A DNA stretch of 64,000 nt from a virus (lineage: Duplodnaviria > Heunggongvirae > Uroviricota > Caudoviricetes), in the IMG/VR virus record IMGVR_UViG_3300011008_000003; one strand, written 5' to 3'. Below the pieces are notes generated by a model that was not told the DNA's origin, made no database searches, and was given only the letters and a program-made list of their open reading frames with translations. This document shows, piece by piece, positions 402 to 49,391 of the stretch (position 1 is its first letter; the number at the start of each line of letters is the position of its first letter). The position numbers were made by a program, and so were the translations under genes.

Positions 402-517
402 GCGGCGAGACTGGACTCGAACCAGCAACCCAAAGTACCCATTAAATAGGAATCATCGGTGCTAGAAAGCGGATAATAAAATATAAACTTTTGCTCTACC
501 ATTGAGCTACCCGCCGC
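402..517 (-). ncRNA. tRNA-like RNA with anticodon loop replaced by a 50-nt insert carrying the bulged-helix/UCCUAUU motif (family member A)
   Basis: 8-bp acceptor GCGGCGGG/CTCGCCGC, D arm TAGCTCAATGGTAGAGC, AAAGT/ACTTT stem, T arm GCTGG-TTCGAGT-CCAGT; insert 437-486. Confidence 0.8.
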
Positions 518-522
518 ATATT

Positions 523-587
523 GTTAAAGCGGAATGTAAGTAAACAATAAAGGAAGTTTTTGAATAGGAACATTCATTTGCTTTAAC
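523..587 (-). ncRNA. Bulged-helix/UCCUAUU RNA (member B)
   Basis: GTTAAAGC-AAAT-GAATGT-TCCTATT...ACATTC-C-GCTTTAAC; begins right after promoter 595-623. Confidence 0.7.
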
Positions 588-635
588 GGTTGTAAATATA
601 GTAAAGATTGTTTGGTTTGTCAACCCCCTTTTTAA

Positions 636-1241
636 TTAAAATGCGTTAAAGAATTTTCGCACTTTATCAATCCAGGTAGGAAGCGTCCAACGCTGTTCAA
701 TCTTTCGGCCATCAGGCAAGATGGTCGTTTTATAATAGGTCTTGTAATCCCAAGTTCTATGATCGTCATAATGGATTTCAGCATTATTTTCTTCATCATA
801 CTGGCGATAACTATCAGACACATAGTTTTGATTTCCTGTATGCGGATAATAAAAATTATGATATTCACGTTCGTAAATAACACGATTCTTGTCATCATAA
901 GTATAATATGTAAGAGACACGCTTTCGTCAGAACGGTTTTCATGCTTCATGTAGAAAACATGCTTAATACAGCGGTTCTTGCTGTCATATTCATTAAATT
1001 CGCGATGTAATTCTGTAATATTATTATGTACCGACACGACATATTCATGAGACAACCGGTTATTGTTTTCGTCAAATGTCGAATTAGTATAGTATGAACC
1101 GCGTTCTTCGTCCGGATAAATAACCGATGAATGAATAACATTGCCGCGTTCATCCTTAACTTCGGTACGTGTATCGGCTGGGGATACAACCTTGACACCA
1201 TTATCGATAATCGTATAGCTTTTATCGGGATTCTGCCAGTT
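636..1241 (-). CDS. Hypothetical protein with YD-like repeats (YDxxNR); start uncertain
   Basis: ORF 636-1055 stays open in frame up to 1241 without ATG; repeats FDENNN, YDSKNR, YDDKNR, YDEENN; possible 5' frameshift. Confidence 0.55.
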   Translation of the reverse strand, partial: NWQNPDKSYTIIDNGVKVVSPADTRTEVKDERGNVIHSSVIYPDEERGSYYTNSTFDENNNRLSHEYVVSVHNNITELHREFNEYDSKNRCIKHVFYMKHENRSDESVSLTYYTYDDKNRVIYEREYHNFYYPHTGNQNYVSDSYRQYDEENNAEIHYDDHRTWDYKTYYKTTILPDGRKIEQRWTLPTWIDKVRKFFNAF

Positions 1242-1445
1242 TTAAAATCAAAAAATGTGTCTGATACGATTCACGCACCTTTTTAGAAGACTTAGACACA
1301 AAATTTATAAGCCTTGAGCGGACACGTTACACCTAATACGCTCATAGCCGACCCATTCTCCAGGGTTAGGGCCTATATGTCAAGTATCATTGCGCATTGA
1401 TAATCCGGGTGAAGACTCCAGATACACATAGGACTTTTTAAAAGC

Positions 1446-1517
1446 TTGGCGGGAAGTAGACCTTCAAATTAGCATTTTGATGCTCTTACTGAGCTAAATA
1501 GGAACTTCCTATGCCAA
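1446..1517 (-). ncRNA. Bulged-helix/UCCUAUU RNA enclosing D arm + anticodon-like arm, GCT (member C)
   Basis: TTGGC-ATA-GGAAGT-TCCTATT-TAGCTCAGTAAGAGC-A-TCAAA-ATGCTAA-TTTGA-AGGTCT-ACTTCC-C-GCCAA. Confidence 0.75.
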
Positions 1518-1624
1518 AATTTTTCGGATATTAATATTTTACTATCAATATCCGGTTAGAATCACCTACAATTTATAGTTTGACGAGAACCGAATTGTTT
1601 GCTTTCTAACTGATGTTTTCGTAC

Positions 1625-1696
1625 TAGCGGGTCTTGGACTCGAACCAAGGACTTTTGGGTTATGGGCCCAAATTGCTACCACTGCATCAACCCGCG
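1625..1696 (-). tRNA. Initiator-type tRNA-Met(CAT)
   Basis: Cloverleaf, C1:T72 mismatch, GGG/CCC in anticodon stem, CAT anticodon. Confidence 0.9.
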
Positions 1697-1717
1697 TCAA
1701 AATAAACTCAAAAATAT

Positions 1718-1815
1718 GGTAAGTGGCCGACACTGTTCAAGACACGCATTCAGTTCCTCGTGCACTAGGCAGAACTCTGGAATTTACTTAGTGTCGGCCT
1801 TAAGGCACACTTACC
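1718..1815. ncRNA. ~100-nt rod-like hairpin with internal bubble
   Basis: GGTAAGTG/CACTTACC and GCCGACACT/AGTGTCGGC nested inverted repeats. Confidence 0.5.
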
Positions 1816-1860
1816 GTACCTGCAGTCTTTTCGTTTTAAGTAGAAAGAAAATATATGTAA

Positions 1861-1977
1861 AAATAAACTCAGTTGCTTTAAAGTAGAAGAACCTGAAATA
1901 ACTCGGCTGCTTTGAAGTAGAAGAGCTTTGAAATAACTCAGTTGCTTTGAAGTAGAAGAACCTGAAATAACTCAGTT
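1861..1977. repeat. Tandem repeat, 34-35 nt x ~3.4, no spacers
   Basis: Units start at 1861, 1896, 1931, 1965; consensus AAATAACTCAGTTGCTTTGAAGTAGAAGAACCTG. Confidence 0.9.
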
Positions 1978-2014
1978 TTTTGTGGAAACCTTGAAAAACC
2001 ATTTTCAAACACTC

Positions 2015-2860
2015 TGCCGGAATCCCGATTCTCCACCGGCCATGACGTCTATCAACTGCCCATTCTATCGGTCGACTTCTTATAGGGTACAAACTCCGTC
2101 ATCTAGCAATTTATTGATCGTCTAGCTATATCTTATATTAATTAAAAACTGCTTAATGGAACACTTCCGGACTTATCTATTTATATGCAACCAAGGATCC
2201 TGTCCTAAAAATGCAGCGTATAAGGCTTTTTAACCGATATAGGGGCACATGTTCTGTACTGGAACCAGCCCACGTACATATCGTCCACAAGCAGTTTTTA
2301 ATTAACATAATACTCTCTATACTCCGCCTGATATAGATTCAGTGCTTAACAGGTTCTCAATAGGAGCTACCTATACAAAAGGCTACAAACCATTTGCCTA
2401 ACATATACTTTAAATATGTCCAGTTGTTGAACCCGTCGGGCGTTATAGGTTCCGGGCGATAAACACAGCACGTTACCGGGACTTCAGAGAAAGCATTCAA
2501 TGTGTGTTCATTGATTTTCTCACGCACTTAAGTAAAACACGTTACAGTCCATATGCTTACAGGCATCCTAATTACAAGGACCGATTAAGAAGTACAACTG
2601 GTGGTTAACCCAGAATTTCTCTTCGCGCACTCTTATTTCAAGTGGCCTCACGTGGCATATTTACAGAGCCAATACTACTCCTTTGCGACCATCATTCTTA
2701 AATCCATAATTCGCAAAGTCAGATTCCTCATCCCAGAGTTTTCCCCATCTGGGTTAGCCCGCTAGCATGAACATGAATGGTGCAACACGGGTTCTCCTCA
2801 CATATAGACTATACTCAATTTCGTTCTTTCAATCTACTGAAACACTCGCTGGTGTTTCAA
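2015..2860 (-). ncRNA. Large structured non-coding region (one large or several ncRNAs)
   Basis: No credible ORF; promoter at 2876-2904; 17-bp perfect IR 2138-2154/2289-2305; 8-bp IR 2420-2427/2594-2601; many local hairpins. Confidence 0.55.
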
Positions 2861-2926
2861 TCATTTACGTCTTATAATATAGTAAATGTTCTTGTGTTCG
2901 TCAACCCTTTTTTATAAAAAAATTTT

Positions 2927-3457
2927 TTATGCCAGGATTATAAGCTCTGCAAGTCTGCGACATGGTTCAGGAATATCCTTACGCTTCAGAAGCATTTCAC
3001 AGACATTCTGATACATTCTCTTCTTTGCATTTTCCTTTGGTTGGTCCCAAGAATTATAAACCATATCGGCAAGCTTAATCAACAAAGCATCCTTCGAAAT
3101 CGAACACAGCTTTTCGGTCATATATTCGGTCTTACCGAGTTGGTCAATGATATGACGGTTATTTGTCAATTCCAAAACCAGTTCTGCTACTTCTTCGCTA
3201 CCAGAAATGACTGCGATTTCTTCATAAGACGTATCAGTATCTTCCAAAAGGTCATGACCGAAGGCGGCGTTAATCTGGTCGATTGTTCCACCATATTTCT
3301 TGACAAGCCAAGCGACTCCGCGAGGATGAACGAAATACGGCATTCCGCTGCCCTTACGAGCCGCATGTGCATGCCTACCCTTCGCAAAGTAATACATGGC
3401 TCGACATTCTACAGGAAAATCCTGCGATTTGGATTTCTTAAACATTGCGCTAAACAT
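2927..3457 (-). CDS. HD-domain (p)ppGpp hydrolase-like protein (Mesh1/small alarmone hydrolase)
   Basis: H...RKGSGMPYFVHP, GHDLLEDT, LIKLAD..YN motifs of the RelA/SpoT hydrolase domain; AAGGAG RBS before 3457. Confidence 0.85.
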   Translation of the reverse strand: MFSAMFKKSKSQDFPVECRAMYYFAKGRHAHAARKGSGMPYFVHPRGVAWLVKKYGGTIDQINAAFGHDLLEDTDTSYEEIAVISGSEEVAELVLELTNNRHIIDQLGKTEYMTEKLCSISKDALLIKLADMVYNSWDQPKENAKKRMYQNVCEMLLKRKDIPEPCRRLAELIILA

Positions 3458-3693
3458 TAATTGCTCCTTGGTTATATAAAACAATATAGAAAAGGGCTGA
3501 CGTTCTGTCAACCCTTTTTCATAAAATAAACGGCGGGAGATTCATTTAGGTGATAAAGTAGCTATCTCTAACACCCATCGCAATTAGACATCAGCACACT
3601 ATCATATGTACACTCAAATAGCATACTGTAATAATCAAAGAAAAACCCTAAGAAACGGTCATGCGATGTATTGTTACCATTAGATGGTTTTAG

Positions 3694-3766
3694 CGCTGGT
3701 GGAGGGATCCGAACCCCCGACCGGCTGATTACAAATCAGCTGCTCTACCTGCTGAGCTACACCAGC
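3694..3766 (-). tRNA. tRNA-Thr(TGT)
   Basis: Canonical cloverleaf, loop TT-TGT-AA. Confidence 0.93.
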
Positions 3767-3782
3767 AAAAGGTGATATATAT

Positions 3783-3917
3783 GGTGATTAACCCACTAAC
3801 GGACTATATCTGCCGGATAAGGTATGTACTAACGCCTCGTTACCTCTATCAGAACCATCGCTTCGTGATGTAAGGCGAATCAAAACTTGGGTTCCTTACA
3901 CGCTTTTGGAAATCACC
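3783..3917 (-). ncRNA. Structured RNA candidate with possible pseudoknot
   Basis: GGTGATT/AATCACC closing stem, TGTAAGG/CCTTACA stem whose loop AACCCA can pair with downstream TGGGTT. Confidence 0.4.
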
Positions 3918-3995
3918 CACGAAGAATAAGTCTCCATTGTCTGCATGAAATCCCACTTTCATGTATTTACTGTTGTATGACTTTAGACTATTTTA

Positions 3996-4069
3996 TCGGA
4001 GTAGCCAGATTCGAACTGACGACATTCTGCTCCCAAAGCAGACGCTCTACCAGACTGAGCTACACTCCG
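3996..4069 (-). tRNA. tRNA-Pro(TGG)
   Basis: Canonical cloverleaf, C1-G72, A73, loop TT-TGG-GA. Confidence 0.93.
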
Positions 4070-4080
4070 GAAATTTTTAG

Positions 4081-4160
4081 CTGTTCCACCTGGACTCGAA
4101 CCAGGGACCAGGGACCAAGCGATTAACAGTCGCTCGCTCTACCAACTGAGCTATGGAACA
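4081..4160 (-). tRNA. tRNA-Asn(GTT) with 7-nt duplication (TGGTCCC) in variable region
   Basis: Cloverleaf, loop CT-GTT-AA, G73; TGGTCCC-TGGTCCC-TGG before T loop. Confidence 0.85.
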
Positions 4161-4223
4161 ATCTTGTATTAACAAATATAGCAATTAATGTTCTACTTGT
4201 CAACCCATAAAATAATTTTTTCG

Positions 4224-4299
4224 CGCCTGGTGAGAGATTCGAACTCCCGACCGGATGATTACTAAACATCTGCTCTAAAGCCAGCTGAGCTAACCAGGC
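4224..4299 (-). tRNA. tRNA-Thr(AGT)
   Basis: Cloverleaf GCCTGGT/ACCAGGC, loop TT-AGT-AA, T:T at base of anticodon loop. Confidence 0.85.
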
Positions 4300-4306
4300 A
4301 AAAATT

Positions 4307-4376
4307 TGGCGGGTCGTAAAACCTTTTGATTACCAATCAACTGCTCATCTGAGCTAAATAGGAACGACCTATGCCA
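4307..4376 (-). ncRNA. Bulged-helix/UCCUAUU RNA enclosing D arm + Thr(GGT) anticodon arm (member D)
   Basis: TGGC-ATA-GGTCGT-TCCTATT-TAGCTCAGATGAGC-A-GTTGA-TTGGTAA-TCAAA-AGGTTTT-ACGACC-C-GCCA; no T arm. Confidence 0.78.
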
Positions 4377-4379
4377 TTA

Positions 4380-4462
4380 TCAGGGTAGCAGGATTCGAAC
4401 CTGCGATGTCACGAGGACGCTAGCTCCCGAAGCTAGTGGCAAACCAACCTGCCGCTACCCTG
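4380..4462 (-). tRNA. tRNA-Pro(CGG) with long variable arm
   Basis: CAGGGTA/TACCCTG, A73, loop TT-CGG-GA, 15-nt variable region CGTCCTCGTGACATC. Confidence 0.85.
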
Positions 4463-4476
4463 TTTTAATTTGTTCG

Positions 4477-4549
4477 TCAGAGTGGCTGGGCTCGAACCAG
4501 CGACCCCTCGCATCCTAGGCGAGCTCTCTACCAACTGAGTTACACTCTG
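4477..4549 (-). tRNA. tRNA-Pro(AGG)
   Basis: CAGAGTG/CACTCTG, A73, loop CT-AGG-AT. Confidence 0.85.
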
Positions 4550-4552
4550 ATA

Positions 4553-4604
4553 AAGTCACTACTTGGACAACTGGCGGAAAGTACGCACGCTCCGTGAGTG
4601 ACTT
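4553..4604 (-). ncRNA. Small hairpin element between tRNAs
   Basis: AAGTCACT/AGTGACTT 8-bp closing stem with inner CGGA/TCCG. Confidence 0.3.
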
Positions 4605-4606
4605 AG

Positions 4607-4681
4607 CTCCAAGGGAAGGATTCGAACCTCCGAAATCTGACACGTTAACAGCGTGCTGGCATACCGCTTGCCGACCCTGGA
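4607..4681 (-). tRNA. tRNA-Asn(GTT)
   Basis: TCCAGGG/CCTTGGA, G73, loop CT-GTT-AA; atypical D arm and 8-nt variable loop. Confidence 0.85.
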
Positions 4682-4690
4682 ATAAATTAG

Positions 4691-4763
4691 CTGGGAAGGA
4701 GGGATTCGAACCCCCAACATAGTGGTTAACAGCCACCCGTTCTACCATTAGAACTACGACCCA
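4691..4763 (-). tRNA. tRNA-Asn(GTT), two acceptor-stem mismatches
   Basis: TGGGTCG/CTTCCCA, loop CT-GTT-AA, canonical T arm. Confidence 0.82.
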
Positions 4764-4769
4764 ATGTAT

Positions 4770-4805
4770 AAAAAAGAAATCCTGTATGGTTTCAATCATA
4801 CAGGA
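4770..4805 (-). terminator. Intrinsic terminator (attenuator) directly 5' of the Asn-Asn-Pro-Pro-Thr tRNA run
   Basis: TCCTGTATG-N8-CATACAGGA 9-bp stem + TTTCTTTTTT. Confidence 0.85.
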
Positions 4806-4835
4806 CTTATCAAAAAAATCGGTATATGAAGAAAC

Positions 4836-4898
4836 CTAATCCAAAAGCACTCCTGGATTCGTCGGATTAGTATTATTTGTGTTCTTCATAAAAGTCAT
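4836..4898 (-). CDS. Putative leader peptide, 20 aa, MTFMKNTNNTNPTNPGVLLD
   Basis: Translated by hand; 5 Asn, 4 Thr, 2 Pro; alternative 1:2, 2:3 and 3:4 pairings. Confidence 0.75.
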   Translation of the reverse strand: MTFMKNTNNTNPTNPGVLLD

Positions 4899-4913
4899 TT
4901 TCTTATCTCTTTA

Positions 4914-4948
4914 TATTATATATAAAAGTTTTTTCCTGTTTTTCGCAA
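4914..4948 (-). promoter_or_regulatory. Leader-type promoter TTGCGA-N18-TATATATAATA
   Basis: Near-identical to 233-267. Confidence 0.7.
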
Positions 4949-4952
4949 AAAT

Positions 4953-5013
4953 AAACAGCGGGCAGTAAGAACCATAAACCAAAGGAGTAAAATAGGAACT
5001 GCGTATGCTGTTT
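4953..5013 (-). ncRNA. Bulged-helix/UCCUAUU RNA with anti-SD-like loop (member E)
   Basis: AAACAGC-ATA-CGCAGT-TCCTATT-TTACTCCTTTGGTTTATGGTTCTT-ACTGCC-C-GCTGTTT; just downstream of promoter 5029-5057. Confidence 0.72.
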
Positions 5014-5063
5014 TGTTTTACATGTTATAATATAGTAAATGTTTTTGTGTTTGTCAACCCTTT

Positions 5064-5603
5064 TTAATCAACTTTTTTAACATTTTTTATTTCGACTTGT
5101 TTTGCAAAATATTCAAACATTTCGATTGCCGCTTGAGGATATTCTTTCGGATAATTCCTGGACCAGTTATAGAAAACAAGCTGAAGCATTTTTGTCAAAT
5201 GTTTGCTATTAATAAATTCTACATTGGTCAAATAAGAAATCATCTGCGTAATATCATTTTGGGTGGTTCCGACATCATCTGTTATCTTACGATAGACATT
5301 AAACATTTTCTGCCGTACCGATACGACATATTTCTTATACTTGTTCAGATAATATCTTAAAGTAAACATATAGTTTACGTATTCATATTTATCTTTACCG
5401 TAGAAAATTGTCGCTGACGATTTCAAGTTTCGTGAAATATGCAAGATAGCGACTTTCTTTCCGTTAATGTCGCATCTTACATAGTAATCGCCAGGATATG
5501 CATTCTTCGTCTCAATCGAATATTCAGACTGATATTCGACAAATTCACAATCTTTACCGAGAACTTCGGTACAGGTTTTTCTAAAAGAATCGGGCGTAAT
5601 CAT
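5064..5603 (-). CDS. Hypothetical protein
   Basis: ORF in co-oriented gene run. Confidence 0.7.
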   Translation of the reverse strand: MITPDSFRKTCTEVLGKDCEFVEYQSEYSIETKNAYPGDYYVRCDINGKKVAILHISRNLKSSATIFYGKDKYEYVNYMFTLRYYLNKYKKYVVSVRQKMFNVYRKITDDVGTTQNDITQMISYLTNVEFINSKHLTKMLQLVFYNWSRNYPKEYPQAAIEMFEYFAKQVEIKNVKKVD

Positions 5604-5924: not shown

Positions 5925-6254
5925 TTATTTCTCATAATTATTCACACTGATGTTTCTTACGTCACAATAACGAAAAACTTTAATCTGGTGCGGATCATGT
6001 TTATTATAAAATCTATTTGTACCGCCGAAACCAAAAACATCTTCTCGTTCCCAATCCTTCATAGAAAGTAATTCACAACGATTACCGCTGTATTTGGGAC
6101 AAATCTGATATGTATCTGGTTCAGGTGCAGGTTCATGATAATATATGATACCGCATATAGGGCTTACTATAAGTATTGAACAGATATAAACAACTTTCCA
6201 TTCAGAAAAATGCTTAATGACTGGTCTGAAAAGACGGTACAAATAGTTTTTCAT
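5925..6254 (-). CDS. Hypothetical membrane-anchored protein
   Basis: One hydrophobic segment. Confidence 0.6.
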   Translation of the reverse strand: MKNYLYRLFRPVIKHFSEWKVVYICSILIVSPICGIIYYHEPAPEPDTYQICPKYSGNRCELLSMKDWEREDVFGFGGTNRFYNKHDPHQIKVFRYCDVRNISVNNYEK

Positions 6255-6257
6255 AGG

Positions 6258-6695
6258 CTAGTGATTGTCGTTGTCGATGATAATCTTTGTTTCTGGACAG
6301 AATACGAACTTGAAAAGTGCTTCAGGATTATCGATGAAGCCAGCAAGCAAGCGACAATTAGAATCGACACTCTGATGGTCGATATAACCGACCATATTTT
6401 CTACCGATTCCGGAATTTCAAGAGTGATTTGCTTGGTAGCGAAATAATCGATAACTGCCTGACGCTTTTCAGGTTCATAATCCATACCTGTGTCCTTGAT
6501 AGCTACGAGCCAGTAGTCAAGCAAAGAATACGGAGTGTCCAAAACATCGTAACCCCATCCATATTCACCTTCACCACGGGCGGCAAGAGTCTGCGGGGCA
6601 GGATTGAGGTTTTCACATGCGCTAGCGCAAGGGAAGCAGATTGTATGTTCAGAAGAACTGTTTGTTTCAAAAACGTTAGGTCTAATTGTCTTCAT
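6258..6695 (-). CDS. Conserved-looking phage protein with N-terminal FETNSSS motif
   Basis: MKTIRPNVFETNSSSEH; AAGGA RBS; adjacent to radical SAM gene. Confidence 0.7.
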   Translation of the reverse strand: MKTIRPNVFETNSSSEHTICFPCASACENLNPAPQTLAARGEGEYGWGYDVLDTPYSLLDYWLVAIKDTGMDYEPEKRQAVIDYFATKQITLEIPESVENMVGYIDHQSVDSNCRLLAGFIDNPEALFKFVFCPETKIIIDNDNH

Positions 6696-6745: not shown

Positions 6746-7783
6746 CTACCAACCCTTGATAGATAACTTAAACAAGTCCCTAATATTTTCTGTTCCGTCG
6801 AAGCTATGCCTCATATCGAGCGGAGCCGTACTCATTCGGCAAACCTTCATAGTTGGAACGTCGATAAACATAGTACAGCATGTAATATTGTACATATCAT
6901 CCTTAACCTTCGTATCAGAGCCTTGATACAGAGTATTCCATGTACTATCGTTTACGCCCATAAGAGATTGAGGCTTGACCTGTTCAATTCCTAAATCGTC
7001 AAATGAAATAGTATTGAATTCAAATGCAAGAATAGGCAAAGACTTCTTGAGCCATTCGATATTCTTGTTTATCGACATAAATTCTTTCTGTAGATGGTCA
7101 TGACCGCGACGAAGATTCTTATATCCAAGGACGATAATCTTCCTATTACGGACAAACGGAATATCGGCTTCGTTGAACAGTCCGGCAATCACATGAATAA
7201 TTACATTCGAACCGAGCATATCGATAATTTTCATATCGTCCGTATTCGAAGAATCTGTCATGGAAACGCCGATACCGTTGACTAGTTTTTCATTTACCAG
7301 TTTCAGTAACAAATCCTTATTCCTGGCAAGATGTTTCTGGTTTACGGTAATATTGGAAATAACGCCCTGCTTTTTCAGAAGTTCAAGGAACCAAACCAAA
7401 TCAGGATGTTCAAAGATATTCCCGCCGCCGATTGCGACTTCAGTACCAGGCTGCAAAGTCTTAATCATCGGTTCAATCTGTCGAAGATTTCCATTCACGC
7501 CTTTTACGGTAGAATTCTCGTGGCAATAGATACAGCCACCGTCACAGCGGTCGGTAATCTTTATGTCGAAATTCTCAGGAAATTCATAAGTCAGATGGTC
7601 TGTTTCTACATCAACCCAACGATTTACACGTTTGCTGTCTGGACCTATTTCATTGATATAATATCCGGTTTCCTTAACTTTCGTACCGTCCGCATAAAGG
7701 ATCGTACGGTGATTGCCATTTACATAACTTCCGACAATTTCTTTATTGTCTGTAAAAATTTTTATCGCTTCGTCTTGTTTCAT
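6746..7783 (-). CDS. Radical SAM protein
   Basis: CDGGCIYC (CxxxCxxC), AIGGGN...HP motif. Confidence 0.9.
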   Translation of the reverse strand: MKQDEAIKIFTDNKEIVGSYVNGNHRTILYADGTKVKETGYYINEIGPDSKRVNRWVDVETDHLTYEFPENFDIKITDRCDGGCIYCHENSTVKGVNGNLRQIEPMIKTLQPGTEVAIGGGNIFEHPDLVWFLELLKKQGVISNITVNQKHLARNKDLLLKLVNEKLVNGIGVSMTDSSNTDDMKIIDMLGSNVIIHVIAGLFNEADIPFVRNRKIIVLGYKNLRRGHDHLQKEFMSINKNIEWLKKSLPILAFEFNTISFDDLGIEQVKPQSLMGVNDSTWNTLYQGSDTKVKDDMYNITCCTMFIDVPTMKVCRMSTAPLDMRHSFDGTENIRDLFKLSIKGW

Positions 7784-7790
7784 CTTCGTT

Positions 7791-8141
7791 TTAAGGTAAT
7801 TTTTCAATACTCATTAGAGTTTTTGTATTTTCAAGCCACATTTTTACTTTTGACGGGACTTCATTAAAAAGAATATCTTTCATATAACATACTACTGCGC
7901 CGTTGATTTTAAGATAAACCTTATCGGCCGCTTCAGTATGTGCATAAAAGAACCATGAGTGTTCATCATAAGAACCTAAATATCGAGTACCGTATACTCG
8001 TATTGCTTGTCTAAAACAGCTACTGTCAACCCATGGTGTAAATATTTCATTAATTACATCAAGATTAATGTAACATATTATCTGTTCTTTTTTGCTACAA
8101 TCATCTATGAACCCGACATAAACATTTTTGTCTACTGTCAT
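7791..8141 (-). CDS. Hypothetical protein
   Basis: ORF with ATGA overlap. Confidence 0.6.
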   Translation of the reverse strand: MTVDKNVYVGFIDDCSKKEQIICYINLDVINEIFTPWVDSSCFRQAIRVYGTRYLGSYDEHSWFFYAHTEAADKVYLKINGAVVCYMKDILFNEVPSKVKMWLENTKTLMSIEKLP

Positions 8142-11860: not shown

Positions 11861-12190
11861 TGGACAATGCGAGCGGACAGGTTAAGCCTAGTAGGTAATA
11901 CTAGACTTTCTTATTCACACTTTTGGCATAAAGCTTCGCGTGTCAGTCAGAAGGACTTATAGGTATGCTTACGGGTCGGTCATCCTGTACTCCGGCTATA
12001 TCATACCAGGCCATGGCGGCTAAGTGTACGGTTTGCTAGACCGTACTTCGATAATCGGTTCGTCACCCGATACGAAACCTTACATACCGAGTCAGTGATA
12101 TACCTCGATTCTGGGTATATGACGGCTCACCCTCTACCGATAGTTCCATTGGGTTGGTCTTCGTTCCGAGGAATAAGTCTTTACGATGTC
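11861..12190 (-). ncRNA. ~330-nt structured ncRNA candidate
   Basis: GC-richer ORF-free intergenic region with own -10 (TACTATATT near 12200), end-to-end helix CTTATTC/GAATAAG and several hairpins. Confidence 0.55.
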
Positions 12191-20140: not shown

Positions 20141-21277
20141 CTATCCATCTAGATCCGCCTTGTCAAATGTGTGATAGTTCTTAAATAGCTTCTTGAATTC
20201 ACTTTCTCGGTCCATTTCGTCACAATGAGTGATTTCCAGGACTTGAGACGAAATACCGGGTACCTTATTAAGTTTATAGTCGTTATCGATACGATTCTTA
20301 AGCTCATTAAGGTCGAGATAACCATATTTGAAATCTCCCTGGAACTTATTACGGTGATTCATCAAATCGTCCTTAATATCGCCAGAAATTTCACTACGTT
20401 TCGTTTCGTCGAACTGACCTGCGCCGTGTCTGGTCAAATACGGCCGTGTAACATAATGAACAGTCAAGTCGTTAATGAAATACAAATCTTTAGAATCGAC
20501 TGCGCCGATACCTGTAACAGACGGCGTAGTATGTACATTATCCGGATCGTCATTCAAAAGAAGTCCTTGTCCGTTTTCGAAAATATATTCGTCGAAATCA
20601 CCAGGAACATTGACAGTAAACTTCACATGGTCAAACATGAACTTACAATCGTCGATAAAATGTTCCATCAAGCCGTCGCTCTCCCAAATTTCTCGTTCTT
20701 CCTTGGTCATTTCGAACTTAGGAGCATACCCAGCGAAAGAATCGAAATATTTGGTATTGAAGTAACTGCGGACATACTTGAGATATGTCTTCTGGTTAGT
20801 CGGAAATGTCCTTGCGAATTCTTCGAAACCGAGAATATAATTCTTGGAACAACGGAGAACTGTTTCCCAAATGCCCATACCACAAGAACCGTGTTCTTCG
20901 TGATACTTCTGACGATTCTCTTCAATAATCTGGTTAGCCAAAATATCGTACGGAGTAGTCCAGCGGCAGAACCTGTGCATGTATATTTGCGGCATAGGCA
21001 GCTTTTTGGCCAGTTCTTTGTATTCCTTGACGAACTGCATGGGATTTACAATGAAGTCCTTAGAGAAGAACGTAGACGCGCCGTAACACGTTCCAGAACC
21101 GAAGTGCTTGAACGTAAACACTTCACCGTTTTTAACGACAGTATGACCACGTTGAGGACCGCCATTGGTAAGGATATTCAGAACCTTACCGTTAGCGTTT
21201 TTCGTATAATGGGCTATGACCGTGCCTTTTCCTTCGTCGCCCCAGTTGGAACCGATAATAATTCTACCCTTCGTCAT
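20141..21277 (-). CDS. purA: Adenylosuccinate synthetase-like protein (divergent)
   Basis: WGDEGKG, NGGPQRGHT, HGSCGMG, ENGQG, TRHGAG. Confidence 0.85.
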   Translation of the reverse strand: MTKGRIIIGSNWGDEGKGTVIAHYTKNANGKVLNILTNGGPQRGHTVVKNGEVFTFKHFGSGTCYGASTFFSKDFIVNPMQFVKEYKELAKKLPMPQIYMHRFCRWTTPYDILANQIIEENRQKYHEEHGSCGMGIWETVLRCSKNYILGFEEFARTFPTNQKTYLKYVRSYFNTKYFDSFAGYAPKFEMTKEEREIWESDGLMEHFIDDCKFMFDHVKFTVNVPGDFDEYIFENGQGLLLNDDPDNVHTTPSVTGIGAVDSKDLYFINDLTVHYVTRPYLTRHGAGQFDETKRSEISGDIKDDLMNHRNKFQGDFKYGYLDLNELKNRIDNDYKLNKVPGISSQVLEITHCDEMDRESEFKKLFKNYHTFDKADLDG

Positions 21278-22014
21278 CGCCTTCGAGTTCTCCGATTGAT
21301 AAGATTGTTTTGATATAGTTAAATGCTGCGAAGATAATGTCTTCGTTATTGCCAAAATTGTTAAATTCTTTGCCGTTTATTATGATACATTTTGGTCTGC
21401 TACGTGAAATATAGGAAGTAAATGTTCTAAATTCAACGGCATCATTTACAATATCAAGATAACCAATAATATAAGCATGGTCGGCAATATCTGTTCGACA
21501 GTAGACCACATTATTGAAATCGTTGACAATTTCCCAAGAATCACCGAATATTTTTACATTCAAATTCAATTTTGCTAGTCCAACCAATTTTTCCTGATTG
21601 TCTGTTGCCCATTGGACTGCATCACTATGGCCAAGTTTATAAAGATTGTCATACATTTTCGTTCAAGCTCTCTAAAGATAAAACAACATCGAGATAGTTA
21701 ATGGCGATTCTGACTTTATCGGCAGAATCAGTCTTGAAAGACTTGCCTGCGATAACCATGAATTCCGGTTGATATACAAACGGATAACTGCAGTACATTC
21801 TAAAATCGCCATCTTTATTGAAATAACCGATTCTTAATTCGCCTTCATCGCGAATGGTTGCAATAACGTTATTAAAAATCTGATACTTTCTTTTAGTCTT
21901 TCCGATAGTAACAGAAATAGGATGCTTAACCCTGTTGTAGATTTCACTTTCAGTTAATCCGAAAACAGTTTTAATCTGATCCATGTAGAATTTAGTAAGA
22001 TTGATTTTAGCCAT
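21264..22014 (-). CDS. Two tandem paralogous hypothetical proteins (21264-21656, 21649-22014)
   Basis: Shared IGY...FR...SY...IxGKxF...AxNY...LS pattern. Confidence 0.6.
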
Positions 22015-30000: not shown

Positions 30001-31275
30001 TTAGACAACAGTCATGCTACCTTTCCATTGGTCAAGCGGAATATAATCGAATACCTGCTTAACGTAGTCAACATAAGTAGGAGATTCGCACATATTCTTT
30101 TCAGGACAATCGCTCAACTTAACGACATCCTTGCCATTGACCTTGACAACCTTCATAACCATGGACAACGGCTTAATACCAGCAGTAGCAGTTACAAGAT
30201 TTGCCATGAAATAAGTACCGATACCGAAGCTAATCTTGATACGGCCGTTGAAATGCTGAGCAATCTTAATTGCCTTATCAACGTCGAGAGAATCAGACCA
30301 GCAACCAGTCTTGGTAGTCGGGTCAATACCGAGTGCCTTATAATGGGCAATCAGCATTTCGCCCCAGACAAACGGGTCACCGCTATCGTGACGGCATCCG
30401 TCGAACAGCTTCGCATAGAACTTATCGAAGTCGCGAAGGAACGGGATAAAGCCGAAATTGTCAGACAACGCGATACCAAGATCGCCACGATATTCCTGTG
30501 TCCATGCGTCGAACACTGCCTTCTGAGACTGGCGAATAGGAACGTCGTCAAGTCCCTGGAACAAAGCATACATTTCGTGTGCAAACGTTCCAATTGCCTT
30601 TACGCCATATTTAATAGCGAAATAAAGGTTAGACGTTCCGACAAAGCACTTGCAATGCTTGGCCATGTAACCAACTGCATAGTCTTGCCATGCAAAGGAA
30701 TGACGACGGCGTGCACCAAAGTCAGCGAAACCGAACTTCAAACCAGAATCGATAGCAGCGTTAAACTTATCAACTGCATCTTTAAGATTTTGCTTTGCCT
30801 TGTCAAAATCAAATTCAAACTGGCGGAGATAAAGTTCCTGGATAATTTCCATCACATAGATTTCAAACCATGTGACTTTGAGCTGTGGACCTTCTGCTTC
30901 GATTTCAAGATCGTCACCACGGCGAGTAATCTTGATGTACTTTCTCTTAAGACGGAAATCTTCAAGCCAATCAACGTAATCCGGCTTAATATAATAAATC
31001 TTGGAAAGAGCATTAAGCTCAAAAGGCTGCCAGCGAAGTGTACAAAGATGGTCGACTTCACGATTTACTGCATCGACAAGATAACCAAGATGAACGTCTT
31101 TAGAACGAAGCTTCCATTTCCACTTAGCCCATTCATTCGGTCGCTTATGAAGCAAACATTGTGTCATACTGACCTTGTAAATGTCAGTGTCACTCAAGTA
31201 ATTGATAATATACTTATCTTCATCGAGTGGTTTATAGTTCTTGATTTCTTCAATTTCTTTTTGAGAAAGTTCCAT
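30001..31275 (-). CDS. pncB: Nicotinate phosphoribosyltransferase
   Basis: DTDIYK, DFGARRRHS, GTSN, GTFAHE, RHDSGDP, SFGIGT, KLSD. Confidence 0.93.
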   Translation of the reverse strand: MELSQKEIEEIKNYKPLDEDKYIINYLSDTDIYKVSMTQCLLHKRPNEWAKWKWKLRSKDVHLGYLVDAVNREVDHLCTLRWQPFELNALSKIYYIKPDYVDWLEDFRLKRKYIKITRRGDDLEIEAEGPQLKVTWFEIYVMEIIQELYLRQFEFDFDKAKQNLKDAVDKFNAAIDSGLKFGFADFGARRRHSFAWQDYAVGYMAKHCKCFVGTSNLYFAIKYGVKAIGTFAHEMYALFQGLDDVPIRQSQKAVFDAWTQEYRGDLGIALSDNFGFIPFLRDFDKFYAKLFDGCRHDSGDPFVWGEMLIAHYKALGIDPTTKTGCWSDSLDVDKAIKIAQHFNGRIKISFGIGTYFMANLVTATAGIKPLSMVMKVVKVNGKDVVKLSDCPEKNMCESPTYVDYVKQVFDYIPLDQWKGSMTVV

Positions 31276-33839: not shown

Positions 33840-33841
33840 AA

Positions 33842-39109: not shown

Positions 39110-40216
39110 TTATTCATTATCCATTTTCTCGAGAGCGTCCTTAATAATCATTTCGTGATGGAAACCCATTTTCGGAAGATTATCAAGTTTGAACCAACGA
39201 GTATCGGCTGCGTCGTCACCCGCGAAAGCAAGCTTCTTTTCCTTGCCAGTTACATGGACGAGGAACGCAGTATCGATAATACGGAGGCGCGGGTCGAACA
39301 TATGGCTGTAAGTACGAATCTGCTTGAACTTATGAACAGGAATATCCAGATGAGTTTCTTCGCGGAGTTCACGAGCTGCGGCATGTTCGAGGTCTTCGTC
39401 AGCCTTTACGTTCTTACCAGTTTCCTTGTCGACAATATCAATCGGATCAAAGAAACCGCCACAGCAGCACCAGTAATTCTGGAAAGGAGGTTTCTTACGA
39501 CGGATAAGCAAGACTTCATCGCCACAGATAGGAACGTTGTCGACAGTATTAGCGAACTTGCCCCATCCCTGCTTCTTGTAATTTTCGATAAATGCCTTTT
39601 CAATCTTATCGTAATCCAAAGGATTCTGATGATACAGCGAATGTTCCTTAATATAATGGAAAACGTTCTTGCTGATATGGTCCTGGACCAGCTTATAATG
39701 ACATTCCGGATCCATTTCAAATGCCTGACGAACATAGCTACTGGAAACATCCTGAACCTTATCGCTCAGTTCCATAAACGTATAGTCGTAGGAATCGGTA
39801 GTATACTTCTTCTGCCAATCCTTTTCGCTTCCCTTACGGGTAAAGATGATAAACTTGTAGTATTTCAAAAGACGCTTGGAGAACTTCCACTTGTCGGCAA
39901 GCAAGCTAGCCCATTCGTCTTCGCCGATAACAATAGTAATGTCCTTCGGGTCGACTGTTCTGAAATTTACAGAAATAAATTCATACATTCGGTTATTCTG
40001 CTTATACAGCTCGTACTTCTTGATATTACGAGCGGCAAGAGCATTACGAACCATATTGCAACGTTCTTCAACCGAAGTACGATTTTTCTTTTCATCATTA
40101 TCGGTTACGAGGATATGGAACTTATCATTCTGGCGAAGCTTCTTATGGATCGTCTTGATAATTTCTTCGTGTGCATGAGTAAACGGGTCAAACCAGCTTC
40201 CAAAAATATAATGCAT
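39110..40216 (-). CDS. Nucleotidyltransferase (NadD/NadM-like)-Nudix hydrolase fusion
   Basis: FDPFTHAH, VIGED, VSSSYVR; Nudix box AAARELREET, DPRLR, AGDDA. Confidence 0.88.
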   Translation of the reverse strand: MHYIFGSWFDPFTHAHEEIIKTIHKKLRQNDKFHILVTDNDEKKNRTSVEERCNMVRNALAARNIKKYELYKQNNRMYEFISVNFRTVDPKDITIVIGEDEWASLLADKWKFSKRLLKYYKFIIFTRKGSEKDWQKKYTTDSYDYTFMELSDKVQDVSSSYVRQAFEMDPECHYKLVQDHISKNVFHYIKEHSLYHQNPLDYDKIEKAFIENYKKQGWGKFANTVDNVPICGDEVLLIRRKKPPFQNYWCCCGGFFDPIDIVDKETGKNVKADEDLEHAAARELREETHLDIPVHKFKQIRTYSHMFDPRLRIIDTAFLVHVTGKEKKLAFAGDDAADTRWFKLDNLPKMGFHHEMIIKDALEKMDNE

Positions 40217-40929
40217 AGAAACATCCTTTATGTTTTTATTAAATATAGAAAAAGGCTGACTCGTCGTCAACCCTTTATATTTTAGTTGATAAAATTAATT
40301 CTCAGTAGATTCGAAGAATAGTTTTGTAAAATTGTCGCCGTCCTCGGCATATACAAATTTAAAATCATATTCTTTTACGAAATCGAAATCAGATATAACA
40401 TCTTTCTGCTTTTCGATTTTCGGAAAACAGAACTGTTTAAATCTGGTAATCTGACGAGAAGCGCCGATTGTACCTTCGGCTTCATCTACTATCGAGAATT
40501 TCTTTGTTTTCTTATCAAATTTAACTTCGACCATAAATCCTCCGTTTAATCTGGTAATGAGTTAATTGCTTCTTCTACTCTCTCATTTTTATATTCAATA
40601 TACTCTTTTTTGATAAATGAAAAGAAATCTGTCTTAGGCTGCTTTGCTATATATAACATTATCAACTGAGGCAATGTAGTTTTATACATACCGTTAGTAA
40701 GGTCATTTTCCTGTTCAAACTTAATAATTTCGTCAATATCAGTAGATACGTCTTTACCGTCTTCACCGATTGATGTAAAAATTGAAGTTAAAGGAAAATA
40801 ATGGGTCTCATTGTCAATAGATATTACTATTGACTTAGTACGAAGTTCCACAAAAAGTATAGTTTTGGTTTTTTCGAGGTTTATACAACCTAACCCATCA
40901 GTACCACTAACATATGTCAAAATCAACAT

Positions 40930-46731: not shown

Positions 46732-47241
46732 TTATTCATTCAACAGCGTTCTTGCCTTGGGCATGAGATTACGTAAAATAGTAAGCTCTTTACCATTCGG
46801 GTCGAGAATTCGCATAGCACTAGCCTTGAATCCAACCTTATAGCAAACATTTTCATAACGGCTAAAACTCATAGTCAAACCGCTGATATTTTCGACCATG
46901 ACATTTGTATATAAGATAGAACCAATTAATGTATCATCGTCTTCGTTATAAAGCTTTATCTCAATCTTGTCGATTGGTTGATTAGTATTTAACAAATGTA
47001 ACAATGCTGCATATTCATTGATTTCATTAAGACAAAATTCAATAGCGAATTTCATGTTATCGGCAGAAGTCATTTCCTTCATAGTATCGGAATCTTTTTC
47101 AGTAGATGCCTCTATAGCAGCAGAATTAACACTGCAAGTAAACTTCTTGTACATGTCTTGAAGCTTTTTCGCAACGCCAATATCGATAGGAATACTTGAC
47201 GGATTGATTGTATAGTCGACTTTAAAATTACAGAATTTCAT
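46732..47241 (-). CDS. Hypothetical protein, possibly tail-tube-like fold
   Basis: IEIKLYN...ILYTNV.VENISGL.MS...KVGF pattern only. Confidence 0.35.
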   Translation of the reverse strand: MKFCNFKVDYTINPSSIPIDIGVAKKLQDMYKKFTCSVNSAAIEASTEKDSDTMKEMTSADNMKFAIEFCLNEINEYAALLHLLNTNQPIDKIEIKLYNEDDDTLIGSILYTNVMVENISGLTMSFSRYENVCYKVGFKASAMRILDPNGKELTILRNLMPKARTLLNE

Positions 47242-47322
47242 AATATACCTCTTATAGTTTTATACAAATATAGAAAAAGGTTGACTTTCGTCAACCTTTT
47301 CTCTCCTTTTCCCCAACTTTTT

Positions 47323-49254
47323 CTAGTTTTTCTTCTGTGCGAAGAGGTCGATGAGAGTGTCCTTGCTCAACTGGGTCAAGTCAAGTTCGACGTCAGCATC
47401 TTCGTCTTCGACAAAAGTAAACCCTGCCATCATGAGAATCGGCTTCAAGTCGATGAACGTACGGCACTTGTTCTTGAGGTTCTCCAGGTAAACTGCGGAG
47501 TACTTATGGTTAGGTACGCGACCGCCGCCCTGGGTCAAATCCATCAAGAACACCTTATTATCCACGATCAATGCACACTGCTTATCGCGTTCATTATCGA
47601 CAGGGATAATGAATTCCGCGAGAACATTGTTCGGGTCACACATCACAGCACCGCTGGTACGACGATAACCGGAAGAATTGAGCTTAGACTTCATGTCTTC
47701 CTTAGCAACGAACAGCTTGAACTGAGACTTCGGATTACCACTGTACTGACTTACGGAAATCTTTCCGTCAGGTGCATTGGAACCGATATAGAAGAGTTCG
47801 GTTGCTTCCGGTTCGGCATTAGTCATGTCACCAGAGAAAATAATCGAGTTATTCTTGCTGGTGAAAGAGCTGTTCCAACCGTAAGAATGTCCTTCCAAAT
47901 CGTACATATGAAGGTCGAAATCGCGAGTTCCCCATTCATTACGCCAGTAAATACCGACGACGTTGTGAGAGTCGCCCATATCGACAGACGTGCCGAACGG
48001 ATAGTTACCGATGAAGTTCTTTTCAGAAGTCGGTACAGTCAAGTTGACGTTCTTCGGATAACGCACAGTGCATGCCTTAGCCTTCAGAGAATCAACAAGG
48101 GAACGTTCGAGTTCATGATAGACGGACATGAGATAAGAAGTCATTGACTGGTCGTTAGCCTTACAATTTTCCTTAACCCACATCTTTCCATTACGAATAA
48201 CATACATCTTACCGGTTGCGTTCTGCAACTTGGCCAAAATTGCCTGCATAAGGGTAATCTTCTTGTAGTTCGTAATTTCGTTTGCTGCCAACTTGCTTGC
48301 AAGAACAGAAAGATCCTTCTTTTCAGCAACGACGGTTTCCCAGAAGCCAGCATGGAACGGCTTATGGTCAGTAACGGCCAGACGACGAATCTGGTTAATT
48401 ACAGACGCATTGGATTCCTTTCCGGAAACGCTAGCCTTGAGCTTAGCGGCAGCCTTCTTGAAAGCTTCATTCTTAAAGACGCTTGTAGAAGAAGCGTTCT
48501 TCGCCTGCTTAAAAGCAAGGAATAACGGCTTGAAGCGGTAGAAAATCGAAGCGAGAGCGTGTCGCTGTTCGTCGGTCAACTTGGTGAAGTCAACCTTATT
48601 GGCATTTTCCTTAATGGTCTGGATGGTACGCTTATCCTTGATGAGCATAGCCTTTCCAGTTGCCTTGAACACGAAGTATCGAATCATGTTAAACGGATCC
48701 TTACCGAACTTGCCGGTCTTGTCCATAAGCATGATAATAGCTTCCTTGTTCTTGACAGAATCAATATCGAGACCATACTTTTCGAAACGGTCGTTCTCGG
48801 TGATGTACTCGATAAGGACATTAAGAGTTTCGGATTCAAGTGCGATACCAGACTGGAGCATCTTAACACAACGGTCATAGATTTCCTGGTCGGTAGCCGG
48901 CATGATTACCTTAAAAGAATTGTACGGAATTTCAACATCCGCATTCTGATTCGGAACATAGCCGTTACCAGCCGTAAAGTCGGTACCATACGTAGAAGCA
49001 TAGTGGCGAAGCTGGTCAATCAAGAGTTCGAAACGAGTCTTGGAAGTGATGTCTTCCCACTTAGCGTAAAAAGTCTTGTTGTAGTTGGTCTTCGCTTCTT
49101 TCTTCACCCAATTGAGTGCAATAGTGGAGCAACAGTCCGGATGGATAATCCAGCCGTACTTTGCTGATTCGGCGTTAACTTCTTCGAAAGAGCGCTTGGT
49201 AGATTCATCTGCCTTAGGCATGACATTGAACATAGTGATCAACTTAAGATTCAT
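47323..49254 (-). CDS. 643-aa protein: helical N-terminal region + TerD-like C-terminal domain; candidate RNA-binding partner of the UCCUAUU RNAs
   Basis: DFDLH...GWN...FSGDMTNA.P.ATE TerD-like motifs; strong codon bias; leader contains family member F. Confidence 0.6.
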   Translation of the reverse strand: MNLKLITMFNVMPKADESTKRSFEEVNAESAKYGWIIHPDCCSTIALNWVKKEAKTNYNKTFYAKWEDITSKTRFELLIDQLRHYASTYGTDFTAGNGYVPNQNADVEIPYNSFKVIMPATDQEIYDRCVKMLQSGIALESETLNVLIEYITENDRFEKYGLDIDSVKNKEAIIMLMDKTGKFGKDPFNMIRYFVFKATGKAMLIKDKRTIQTIKENANKVDFTKLTDEQRHALASIFYRFKPLFLAFKQAKNASSTSVFKNEAFKKAAAKLKASVSGKESNASVINQIRRLAVTDHKPFHAGFWETVVAEKKDLSVLASKLAANEITNYKKITLMQAILAKLQNATGKMYVIRNGKMWVKENCKANDQSMTSYLMSVYHELERSLVDSLKAKACTVRYPKNVNLTVPTSEKNFIGNYPFGTSVDMGDSHNVVGIYWRNEWGTRDFDLHMYDLEGHSYGWNSSFTSKNNSIIFSGDMTNAEPEATELFYIGSNAPDGKISVSQYSGNPKSQFKLFVAKEDMKSKLNSSGYRRTSGAVMCDPNNVLAEFIIPVDNERDKQCALIVDNKVFLMDLTQGGGRVPNHKYSAVYLENLKNKCRTFIDLKPILMMAGFTFVEDEDADVELDLTQLSKDTLIDLFAQKKN

Positions 49255-49282
49255 AATCTTTTCCTCATTTGAAAATAAAAAA

Positions 49283-49348
49283 CTGTTAAAGCGAGAAGTA
49301 AGTTTTGCCTAATTATCAGTTTAATAGGAACTTCTTTTGCTTTAACAG
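49283..49348 (-). ncRNA. Bulged-helix/UCCUAUU RNA in 5' leader of the 643-aa gene (member F)
   Basis: CTGTTAAAGC-AAA-AGAAGT-TCCTATT...ACTTCT-C-GCTTTAACAG followed by TTTTTTATTTT; between promoter 49354-49382 and GAGG RBS. Confidence 0.75.
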
Positions 49349-49391
49349 GTGTAAATATAGTAAAGTGTGTTAGGTTTGTCAACCCTTTTTA

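Follow-up and report, generated by a model that had tools for sequence, protein, structure and literature searches.

Modular small RNAs carrying tRNA parts are genomically coupled to a helical and TerD-fold protein family: a candidate Y-RNA-like ribonucleoprotein of phages

The window analyzed here is a 64,000-nucleotide stretch of DNA from a virus of the Caudoviricetes (IMG/VR record IMGVR_UViG_3300011008_000003), and its minus strand carries every gene. It holds six small structured RNA elements that share one module, called the handle here, and the gene of a 643-residue protein, P0001, which has one of the six elements just upstream. The RNA family and the family of this protein are genomically coupled. 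We infer, with a probability of roughly 0.55, that the handle RNAs and P0001 form a Y-RNA-like ribonucleoprotein, in which the protein would bind the handle, the variable part of the RNA would display pieces of tRNA, and the copy next to the gene would couple the levels of protein and RNA.

The handle and the RNAs built on it

All six elements are present where an earlier note, made from the letters of the window alone, had placed them (Table 1). A covariance model, R1, was built from eight leader-type copies (alignment A1). Run over the 64 kb, it matched five of the window copies (E values of 2.6e-18 to 7e-5) and nothing else. In these five copies the order of parts is P1, a bulge A-N-A(-N), P2, UCCUAUU, the variable part (called the cargo here), U, P2', a single C, and P1'. 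The P1 helix has 4–10 bp, with G-C at its end in every case, and the bulge has 3–4 nt and starts with A. The P2 helix has 6 bp and ends in G-U, and P2' starts with A-C. The earlier note had given one shared order for all six elements. This stands for five of them, but copy 1 is wired as P2'-C-GC-loop-GC-ACC-P2-UCCUAUU. The helix pairs quoted there are correct, except that the pair of copy 5 (CGCAGU/ACUGCC) holds one C.C mismatch. Both helices were recovered by RNAfold in every stand-alone copy (z-scores −2.5 to −4.7). The string UCCUAUU alone is not enriched in the window (14 seen, 11.8 expected); the full structured motif is not a product of chance.

The handle is not confined to the window. 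R1 gave 25 matches on five related phage records. When IMG/VR was scanned with a pattern, about 83 distinct copies in about 35 contigs passed a strict structural filter. Covariation was scored on an R1-fitted alignment of 85 hits from 41 sources (74 distinct sequences), an alignment that leans towards the model. In the 74 distinct sequences P2 is 98.9% paired and five of its six pairs covary with double changes, and P1 is 91.8% paired with seven of eight pairs covarying. The covariation score was 0.446, against 0.144 for shuffles (none of 500 reached 0.446) and at most 0.124 for slid partners. Because the effect is large, and because the regular-expression matches are independent of R1, the helices are secure. 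A third helix, P3 (CCUA/UAGG), is paired in 51% of cells only and is thus an optional hairpin outside the core. Orthologous copies hold their positions across relatives, with compensatory changes. Orthologs of copy 4 in three contigs (L004, L009, and L012) show a U-A to U.G change in P2, and homologs of copy 1 with a covarying P2 were found by a hairpin-form regular expression at L012:14662 and in L001, L080, and L110. The matches to the structured motif and the covariation of its helices show that the six RNAs form a genuine modular family, as had been proposed.

Two parts of the handle are 100% invariant in the 74 distinct sequences: at the internal loop, C-A-N-A together with C-G, and at the upper end of P2, G-U-U-C-C-U together with U-A-C. 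Between the two clusters lie four base pairs that covary freely, an arrangement typical of a recognized surface. In the cyanophage copies and those of the gut phage Phass-1, UCCUUU is found in place of UCCUAU, so that the true core is GUUCCU. The G.U pairs and the single-strand orientation argue for an element that acts as RNA, not DNA. A run of U follows P1 in 29 of the 83 copies (35%), compared with 21 of 332 background windows (6%), which fits small RNAs that end at P1 and are encoded ahead of a protein gene. The earlier note had suggested a comparison with Rfam; searches at the gathering thresholds and at E≤5 returned no family for any handle of the window or of the cultured-phage loci. 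Separately, GAAGTTCCTATT in copies 3 and 6 (1497-1509 and 49323-49335 (-)) agrees with the FRT half-site of yeast Flp at 12 of its 13 bases. We judge this likeness to be a coincidence, since its GAAG portion belongs to the freely covarying P2.

The cargoes differ from copy to copy. Copy 1 is a tRNA-shaped RNA in which the handle sits inside the anticodon loop: a 6-nt loop closes the module at its P1 end, and the junction is where it opens. The Rfam tRNA model (RF00005) scores 49.3 bits on it and aligns the acceptor, the D arm, the anticodon stem, and the T arm, with 50 nt between the anticodon-stem strands where 7 are expected; ARAGORN did not call copy 1 as a tRNA. Copies 3 and 4 have neither an acceptor nor a T arm, and a cloverleaf with a 7-nt anticodon loop is formed by none of copies 1, 3, and 4. 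Copy 2, with GUUAAAGC/GCUUUAAC as its P1, lies 5 nt upstream of copy 1. Consensus TTGACA-17-TATATT promoters stand about 10 nt before the start of copies 2, 5, and 6. Between the end of copy 6 and the ATG of the P0001 gene there are 28 nt, and this copy is either the leader of the gene or a separate small RNA gene just upstream.

Table 1. Handle RNAs, associated promoters, and the P0001 gene in the window.
Feature	Position	Strand	Description
Copy 1	402-517	(-)	tRNA-shaped RNA: 8-bp acceptor with G-1:C73, D arm, T arm, anticodon stem AAAGU/ACUUU; handle hairpin replaces the anticodon loop
Copy 1 handle hairpin	445-478	(-)	U-AUUAUC-C-GC-UUUCUA-GC-ACC-GAUGAU-UCCUAUU; read from the sequence and by hairpin-type regular expression
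Copy 2	523-587	(-)	25-nt pyrimidine-rich unstructured cargo; R1 69.5 bits, E 5e-16; fold z −4.7
Promoter of copies 2 and 1	595-623	(-)	TTGACA-17-TATATT, sigma-70-type
Copy 3	1445-1518	(-)	D and anticodon arms on handle, loop AUGCUAA, anticodon GCU; R1 31.8 bits, E 6.5e-6
Copy 4	4307-4376	(-)	D and anticodon arms on handle, loop UUGGUAA, anticodon GGU; R1 27.9 bits, E 7e-5
Copy 5	4953-5013	(-)	pyrimidine-rich cargo (..CUCCUUUGG..); P1 AAACAGC/GCUGUUU; R1 64.4 bits, E 1.2e-14
Promoter of copy 5	5029-5057	(-)	pattern match
P0001 gene	47323-49254	(-)	643 aa; N-terminal helical domain ~1-400, C-terminal TerD-fold beta sandwich ~427-576
Copy 6	49283-49348	(-)	P3 hairpin (CCUA..UAGG); 10-bp P1, then UUUUUUAUUUU; R1 78.1 bits, E 2.6e-18
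Promoter of copy 6 and P0001 gene	49354-49382	(-)	pattern match

The modularity noticed in the window is real, and the variety among relatives is larger than first described. The majority class of cargo in relatives is a short hairpin or an unstructured stretch of 16–45 nt. Other handles carry a lone anticodon stem-loop (anticodons GCA, UUA, UAA, UUU), a D arm with an anticodon arm (GCU, GGU, GAU, GUU, UGA, GUA), or a T arm with other hairpins. Some cargoes are whole tRNA bodies of normal order that encode NCCA but have a GAAA, GCAA, or UUAU tetraloop for the anticodon loop. In the permuted tRNA bodies (L132:744-870, L141(-)7163-7276, and L171:4421-4540), the T arm, a loop-closed acceptor, and the D arm are joined to the handle at the anticodon stem. 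There are also acceptor/T minihelices with the handle in place of the D and anticodon arms, and the handle is further found as an mRNA leader. The tRNA bodies of the window are partial (copies 3 and 4) or in normal order (copy 1) only, and copy 1 is the counterpart, in normal order, of the permuted class. Most of the RNAs in these classes are unable to decode. The same module thus occurs in at least four wirings, namely open at P1, as a hairpin in the anticodon loop, replacing the acceptor/T domain, and replacing the D/anticodon domain; the handle and not the cargo is therefore the constant functional unit. Arrays reach 11 copies (L132).

P0001 and its coupling to the handle

P0001 was modeled by AlphaFold2 with a predicted local distance difference test score (pLDDT) of 80.5. 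It had been called TerD-like, and this was borne out for the C-terminal third. Residues 427-576 align with 2qz7_B (Z 8.9, root-mean-square deviation (rmsd) 3.3, 123 residues aligned) and 2kxt (Z 8.6, rmsd 3.5, 133 aligned), the top two of 48,161 chains, and Foldseek matches P0001 to 3ibz with a probability of 0.98. At the sequence level, PF02342 (TerD) gave no hit at E≤1 in 22 members of the P0001 family. The sole TerD signal of this kind came from an Atlas feature neighbor, with TerD in 22% of its members. Sequence searches of Pfam, PHROGs, and the PDB found no family for P0001. The family is large, with at least 964 homologs, and a profile of the N-terminal domain reaches at least 1243 clusters at 50% identity in a representative library. 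This N-domain, of about 400 residues, is all-helical when folded alone (pLDDT 79). Fold searches with P0001 recovered the TerD domain alone; the rows for the N-domain were generic helical hairpins over residues 301-398. Among the neighbors of the P0001 gene in the window, no Pfam family was found except a calcineurin-like phosphoesterase 2 kb downstream.

The earlier note had asked for a test of whether the motif occurs together with homologs of the 643-residue protein. It does so, far beyond the lineage of this phage. Copy 6 is kept in the leader of all six IMG/VR homologs (62–75% identity), with P1 and P2 differing in sequence and covarying. Five further handle-bearing phage records, picked by their RNA and not by the protein, all encode a P0001 homolog. 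In three of these (G007, G008, and G009) the gene comes directly after the RNA array, and the 11-copy array stands in front of G008:197556. At greater distance (28–30% protein identity), the cultured Synechococcus phages S-CRM01 and S-CBWM1 have a handle within about 100 nt of the homolog gene, and Phass-1 has handles about 1.3 kb downstream of its homolog. Homologs are also found in metagenome-assembled genomes (MAGs) of Fibrobacter, Bacteroidales, Paludibacteraceae, Muribaculaceae, and Selenomonadaceae; the nearest homologs in cellular bins are those of rumen Fibrobacter MAGs. In 14 of the 17 MAG loci a handle lies within 130 nt upstream of the gene and on the same strand, and several loci have a second handle just downstream. 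Over the 116 kb of these loci, none of the 18 handle hits lies away from the gene. Five control phage records (128–238 kb) have neither a handle RNA nor a P0001 homolog. The genomic coupling of the RNA family to the protein family is shown by these data.

Some observations on the cultured phages stand apart from this. The Phass-1 record (L170, OQ749652.1) holds a transfer-messenger RNA gene at 7461-7899 (Rfam, 77.9 bits) that is unannotated in this stretch and directly follows an array of four handles at 7058-7456. In S-CBWM1 (L169), two features labeled 'tRNA-pseudo' lie at 6117-6293, just downstream of the P0001 homolog gp22, and the record has no annotation for its handle copies at 1380-1444 and 3848-3911.

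A predicted ribonucleoprotein and the rival explanations

In the reading we favor, the six elements would be genes, or parts of genes, for small RNAs on one predicted protein-binding module. The handle of this module comprises P1, the asymmetric A-N-A/C internal loop, the 6-bp P2, and the GU-UCCU...U-AC junction. The neighboring protein of the P0001 family, with its helical and TerD domains, would bind the handle to give a ribonucleoprotein. That the handle is recognized by a protein is suggested because the two invariant patches flank four covarying pairs, the conservation is independent of the wiring, and the module is linked to one protein gene. The P0001-family protein appears to be the partner that explains the data most economically. 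The variable part would then display a piece of tRNA, be it a T arm, an anticodon arm with or without the D arm, or a whole tRNA body whose anticodon loop does not work. While the constant stem holds the protein, the tRNA mimic would engage, tether, or titrate tRNA-binding factors, much as in YrlA (PMC4201824). Candidate factors are host anticodon nucleases and enzymes of tRNA processing, repair, or modification. The copy upstream of the P0001 gene would couple the levels of protein and RNA, either by autoregulation or as a leaky terminator. The order of promoter, handle RNA, P1 with its U-run, and protein gene would give an excess of RNA and a feedback of the protein on its own leader.

Several points weigh against this reading. 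P0001 has no recognizable RNA-binding domain, and its N-domain has no significant match in the PDB or the ESM Atlas by Foldseek or VIA-align. TerD domains are known as Ca-binding modules of the stress response, not as RNA binders. A clear handle was not found at three of the 17 MAG loci. A handle that served purely as a cis-regulatory leader would also lie beside the gene.

In one rival, the handle is an RNA element that acts in cis on its own, be it as a ligand-sensing riboswitch, as a 5' stabilizer, or as an antiterminator that binds RNA polymerase in the manner of HK022 put, and P0001 is just one of the genes under its control. In its favor, three of the six window copies open a transcript that starts from a consensus early-type promoter, most lineages have the element in the P0001 leader, and P1 with the U-run resembles a terminator or attenuator. 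However, an element of this kind would not be expected in arrays of up to 11 copies, grafted on tRNA bodies, or in tRNA clusters without a downstream gene. Strict co-occurrence at the genome level with one protein family is likewise unexpected for a general transcription element, and no riboswitch or leader of Rfam matches. We regard this explanation as unlikely.

A second rival, to which we give about the same low credence, takes the handle as a processing signal. Algae and archaea have permuted tRNA genes whose maturation uses a bulged helix, and bulge-helix-bulge maturation of permuted or intron-bearing tRNA genes is established in archaea and in Cyanidioschyzon merolae. Copy 1 and its permuted relatives would by this account be split, intron-bearing, or permuted tRNA genes from which the handle is excised and the ends are ligated, for example by a phage RtcB, with P0001 possibly the endonuclease. 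The two systems are alike in their rotated tRNA bodies, in ends that lie at the anticodon loop, and in the bulged helix that joins them. In tRNA bodies of normal order, and in those of permuted order (L132:744-870, L141(-)7163-7276, and L140:1470-1700), the position of the handle is precisely that of the anticodon loop. RtcB is encoded in four of the five handle phages and lies about 4 kb from the RNA island in G001; its presence fits a context of RNA damage and repair but is not specific, and one complete handle phage is without it. Against splicing, many cargoes could never give a tRNA (tetraloop bodies, D and anticodon arms alone, the anticodon arm, pyrimidine stretches, the mRNA leader), and most are short of the needed tRNA parts. 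The motif is a 3–4/1-nt loop with a 6-bp helix and not bulge(3)-helix(4)-bulge(3). The splicing endonuclease (PF01974) is absent from five phage records, four of them at least 98% complete, whereas archaeal controls matched, and the sigma-70 promoters point to bacterial hosts. Copy 1 without its 43-nt insert gives no unique canonical 7-nt loop, and its His-like acceptor comes without GUG. Splicing or maturation of split tRNAs therefore appears disfavored, because cargoes lack tRNA essentials and both the bulge-helix-bulge geometry and the endonuclease are missing.

The earlier note had likened the system to Ro60 and the Y RNAs. The analogy with YrlA fits the architecture, and in particular the permuted bodies of relatives. 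In YrlA, the RNA ends form a terminal stem, and a tRNA-like domain has a closed acceptor (PMC4201824). In handle RNAs, too, the 5' and 3' ends pair into a conserved stem with a bulge, which would hold the protein. The permuted bodies place a tRNA mimic with T arm, D arm, and loop-closed acceptor distal to this stem. Both kinds of RNA adjoin the gene of the partner protein, are often present in several copies, and occur in phages and bacteria, often with RtcB in the same genomes. YrlA-type RNAs with Ro60/Rsr are described from Salmonella, Mycobacterium, and mycobacteriophages (RF02553; Chen et al. 2014, PMC4201824).

The differences are substantial. The protein has a helical domain and a TerD fold and is not a detectable TROVE/vWA protein. 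In Y RNAs, the 5' side of the terminal stem carries the Ro-binding motif, GNCGAAN0-1G in bacteria or GGUCCGA in vertebrates (PMC4201824). This motif is absent from the handle, whose 5' strand reads GC-A-N-A-NNNNGU-UCCU in the 74 distinct sequences; the stem is marked instead by the A-N-A/C loop, GUUCCU, and UAC. The cargoes of handle RNAs are far more varied, with partial tRNAs, lone anticodon arms, and unstructured stretches, and the module is also placed within normal-order tRNA bodies and as an mRNA leader. The YrlA model RF02553, run on positions 1-5200, gave a sole signal of 25.2 bits (69 needed) at 4043-4110, on genuine tRNAs, and none on the handles.

A stronger form of the comparison, in which P0001 is a hidden TROVE protein with TerD in place of vWA and the handle a divergent Ro-binding stem, is in our view very improbable. 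Besides the architecture, it could draw on the N-domain, which is TROVE-like in being all-helical and about 400 residues long, and on three Ro60 chains among the weak Foldseek rows for the N-domain model (E 0.75–0.89, TM 0.16–0.19, rmsd 13–16 Å). Yet hhalign of 22 family members against 22 TROVE sequences, an alignment built from a Bacteroidales-genome Ro60, gave a probability of 0.1% and E 0.59, with the match in the C-terminal tail alone. No TROVE hit was obtained by hmmscan at E≤1 in the 22 members, Ro60 was outside the best 50 of VIA-align with the N-domain, and the atlas search returned no TROVE cluster. PF05731 (TROVE) is absent from five handle phages (three complete) and five P0001-bearing MAGs, in searches where the controls matched. 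The handle has its single-C bulge on the 3' rather than the 5' strand and is without the Ro-contact motif. Kinship with Ro60 and Y RNAs is thus not supported by the comparisons of domain, profile, and motif, and the structure searches gave no convincing match to Ro60. The system is not a detectable member of the Ro60/Y-RNA family, though it is like it in design.

Least credible is that the handle is a small ribozyme that cleaves itself, or that it marks one end of a mobile element, of RNA or DNA, inserted in tRNA genes and leaders: the module does occur in several circular permutations, as is typical of hammerhead and twister ribozymes, and in many copies per genome with differing flanks, but no Rfam ribozyme matches, the conserved residues are by eye unlike known catalytic cores (no K-turn, hammerhead, twister, or pistol core was seen in the handle on inspection), and orthologs are fixed in position with compensatory changes rather than the near-identity expected of recent mobility.

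Two further systems help to place the proposed ribonucleoprotein. Type III toxin-antitoxin loci (ToxIN and its relatives), and other loci in which an RNA array precedes the gene of its protein partner, resemble handle loci in having a promoter, one or more structured RNAs, a terminator-like stem, and the gene of a presumed RNA-binding protein, in an order that sets the ratio of RNA to protein. Unlike those of ToxIN, handle RNAs are not identical tandem repeats, since P1, P2, and cargoes differ; P0001, with 643 residues, shows no resemblance to ToxN-type endoribonucleases, and toxicity is not implied. In the engineered tRNA scaffolds of Ponchon and Dardel, an RNA of interest is reportedly placed in the anticodon stem of a tRNA. 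Copy 1 is a natural equivalent, with a structured module for the anticodon loop of an otherwise complete tRNA body. By analogy, a body of the copy 1 type would be processed and stabilized like a tRNA. Unlike the engineered scaffold, it is natural, conserved, and one of several wirings.

Genomic setting and meaning

The window has 8 to 10 tRNA genes, auxiliary metabolic genes, and promoters of the consensus sigma-70 form AAAAAGGGTTGACA-17-TATATT, and its relatives include IMG/VR contigs of up to 411 kb. It is therefore a piece of a huge phage with a bacterial host. A fixed-spacing phage-promoter scan of the viral contigs gave 0 matches.

The tRNA and handle island has further features. A 1.1-kb cluster (4606-4763 and 4080-4160 (-)) holds three tRNA-Asn(GUU), two tRNA-Pro, and two tRNA-Thr genes, a redundancy that is unusual for one anticodon. 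A tRNA-like RNA with a long variable region at 4380-4462 (-) abuts copy 4; it scores 42.6 bits in Rfam and is not called by ARAGORN. In the middle of the island, 2927-3511 (-) encodes an HD_4 domain protein (RelA/SpoT-type HD hydrolase, E 1e-8). The stretch 1700-2880 (-), downstream of a consensus promoter at 2904-2876, has about 1.2 kb without an open reading frame above 93 aa, has no match in Rfam, and is a candidate long non-coding RNA. Inside it, at 1861-1977, a 34-nt unit is repeated 3.4 times in tandem. The promoter at 376-348 serves a handle-free, structured leader of about 90 nt (260-376 (-)). A block UUGCGAAAACAGGAAAAAC..UAUAUAUAAUAUAAA is shared between the region after this leader and that after copy 5 (4900-4950 (-)), in both cases just before short open reading frames, and may be a second promoter class.

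Elsewhere in the window, 11948-12052 (-) matches the cow-rumen-2 RNA (RF02947, 103 bits), a structured RNA which had so far come only from rumen metagenomes; here it lies in the genome of a huge rumen phage. Genes for the salvage of nicotinamide adenine dinucleotide (NAD), namely a nicotinate phosphoribosyltransferase and a fusion of nicotinamide mononucleotide adenylyltransferase with NUDIX, are found together with a divergent gene like that of adenylosuccinate synthetase (80 bits), which may be PurZ-like (jointly 30001-31275, 39110-40270, and 20141-21355, all (-)). In Phass-1, NAD salvage genes likewise adjoin the P0001 homolog.

Neither the handle nor the P0001 family is described in Rfam or in the literature searched; a survey of jumbo phages covers classical ROT/TROVE proteins and Ter systems only (PMC7824862). 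We tentatively suggest a broader picture, less probable than the ribonucleoprotein itself, in which handle RNAs and the helical and TerD protein form an unrecognized and widespread ribonucleoprotein class, independent of Ro60/Y RNA. Such a class might range over huge phages, cyanophages, gut phages, and bacteria of gut and rumen. Its module could be a socket for interchangeable tRNA parts (anticodon arms of selected specificity, T arms, and entire bodies that lack an anticodon), giving programmable tRNA decoys or adaptors against host defenses that target tRNA, or steering tRNA repair.

If P0001 binds the handle, the Ro60/Y-RNA design would have been invented a second time, apparently independently. 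The system abounds in the largest gut and rumen phages and occurs in cultured cyanophages too. Its modularity is unusual, with one socket for anticodon arms of defined anticodon, T arms, and whole tRNA bodies in several circular permutations, and this offers a direct route to asking which tRNA-binding machines phages must capture or mislead. Handle RNAs would account for many 'pseudo-tRNA' features and unannotated gaps in the tRNA islands of phages, and a large unannotated protein family would gain a function-linked partner. The homologs in S-CRM01 (gp174) and S-CBWM1 (gp22) make the system experimentally tractable.

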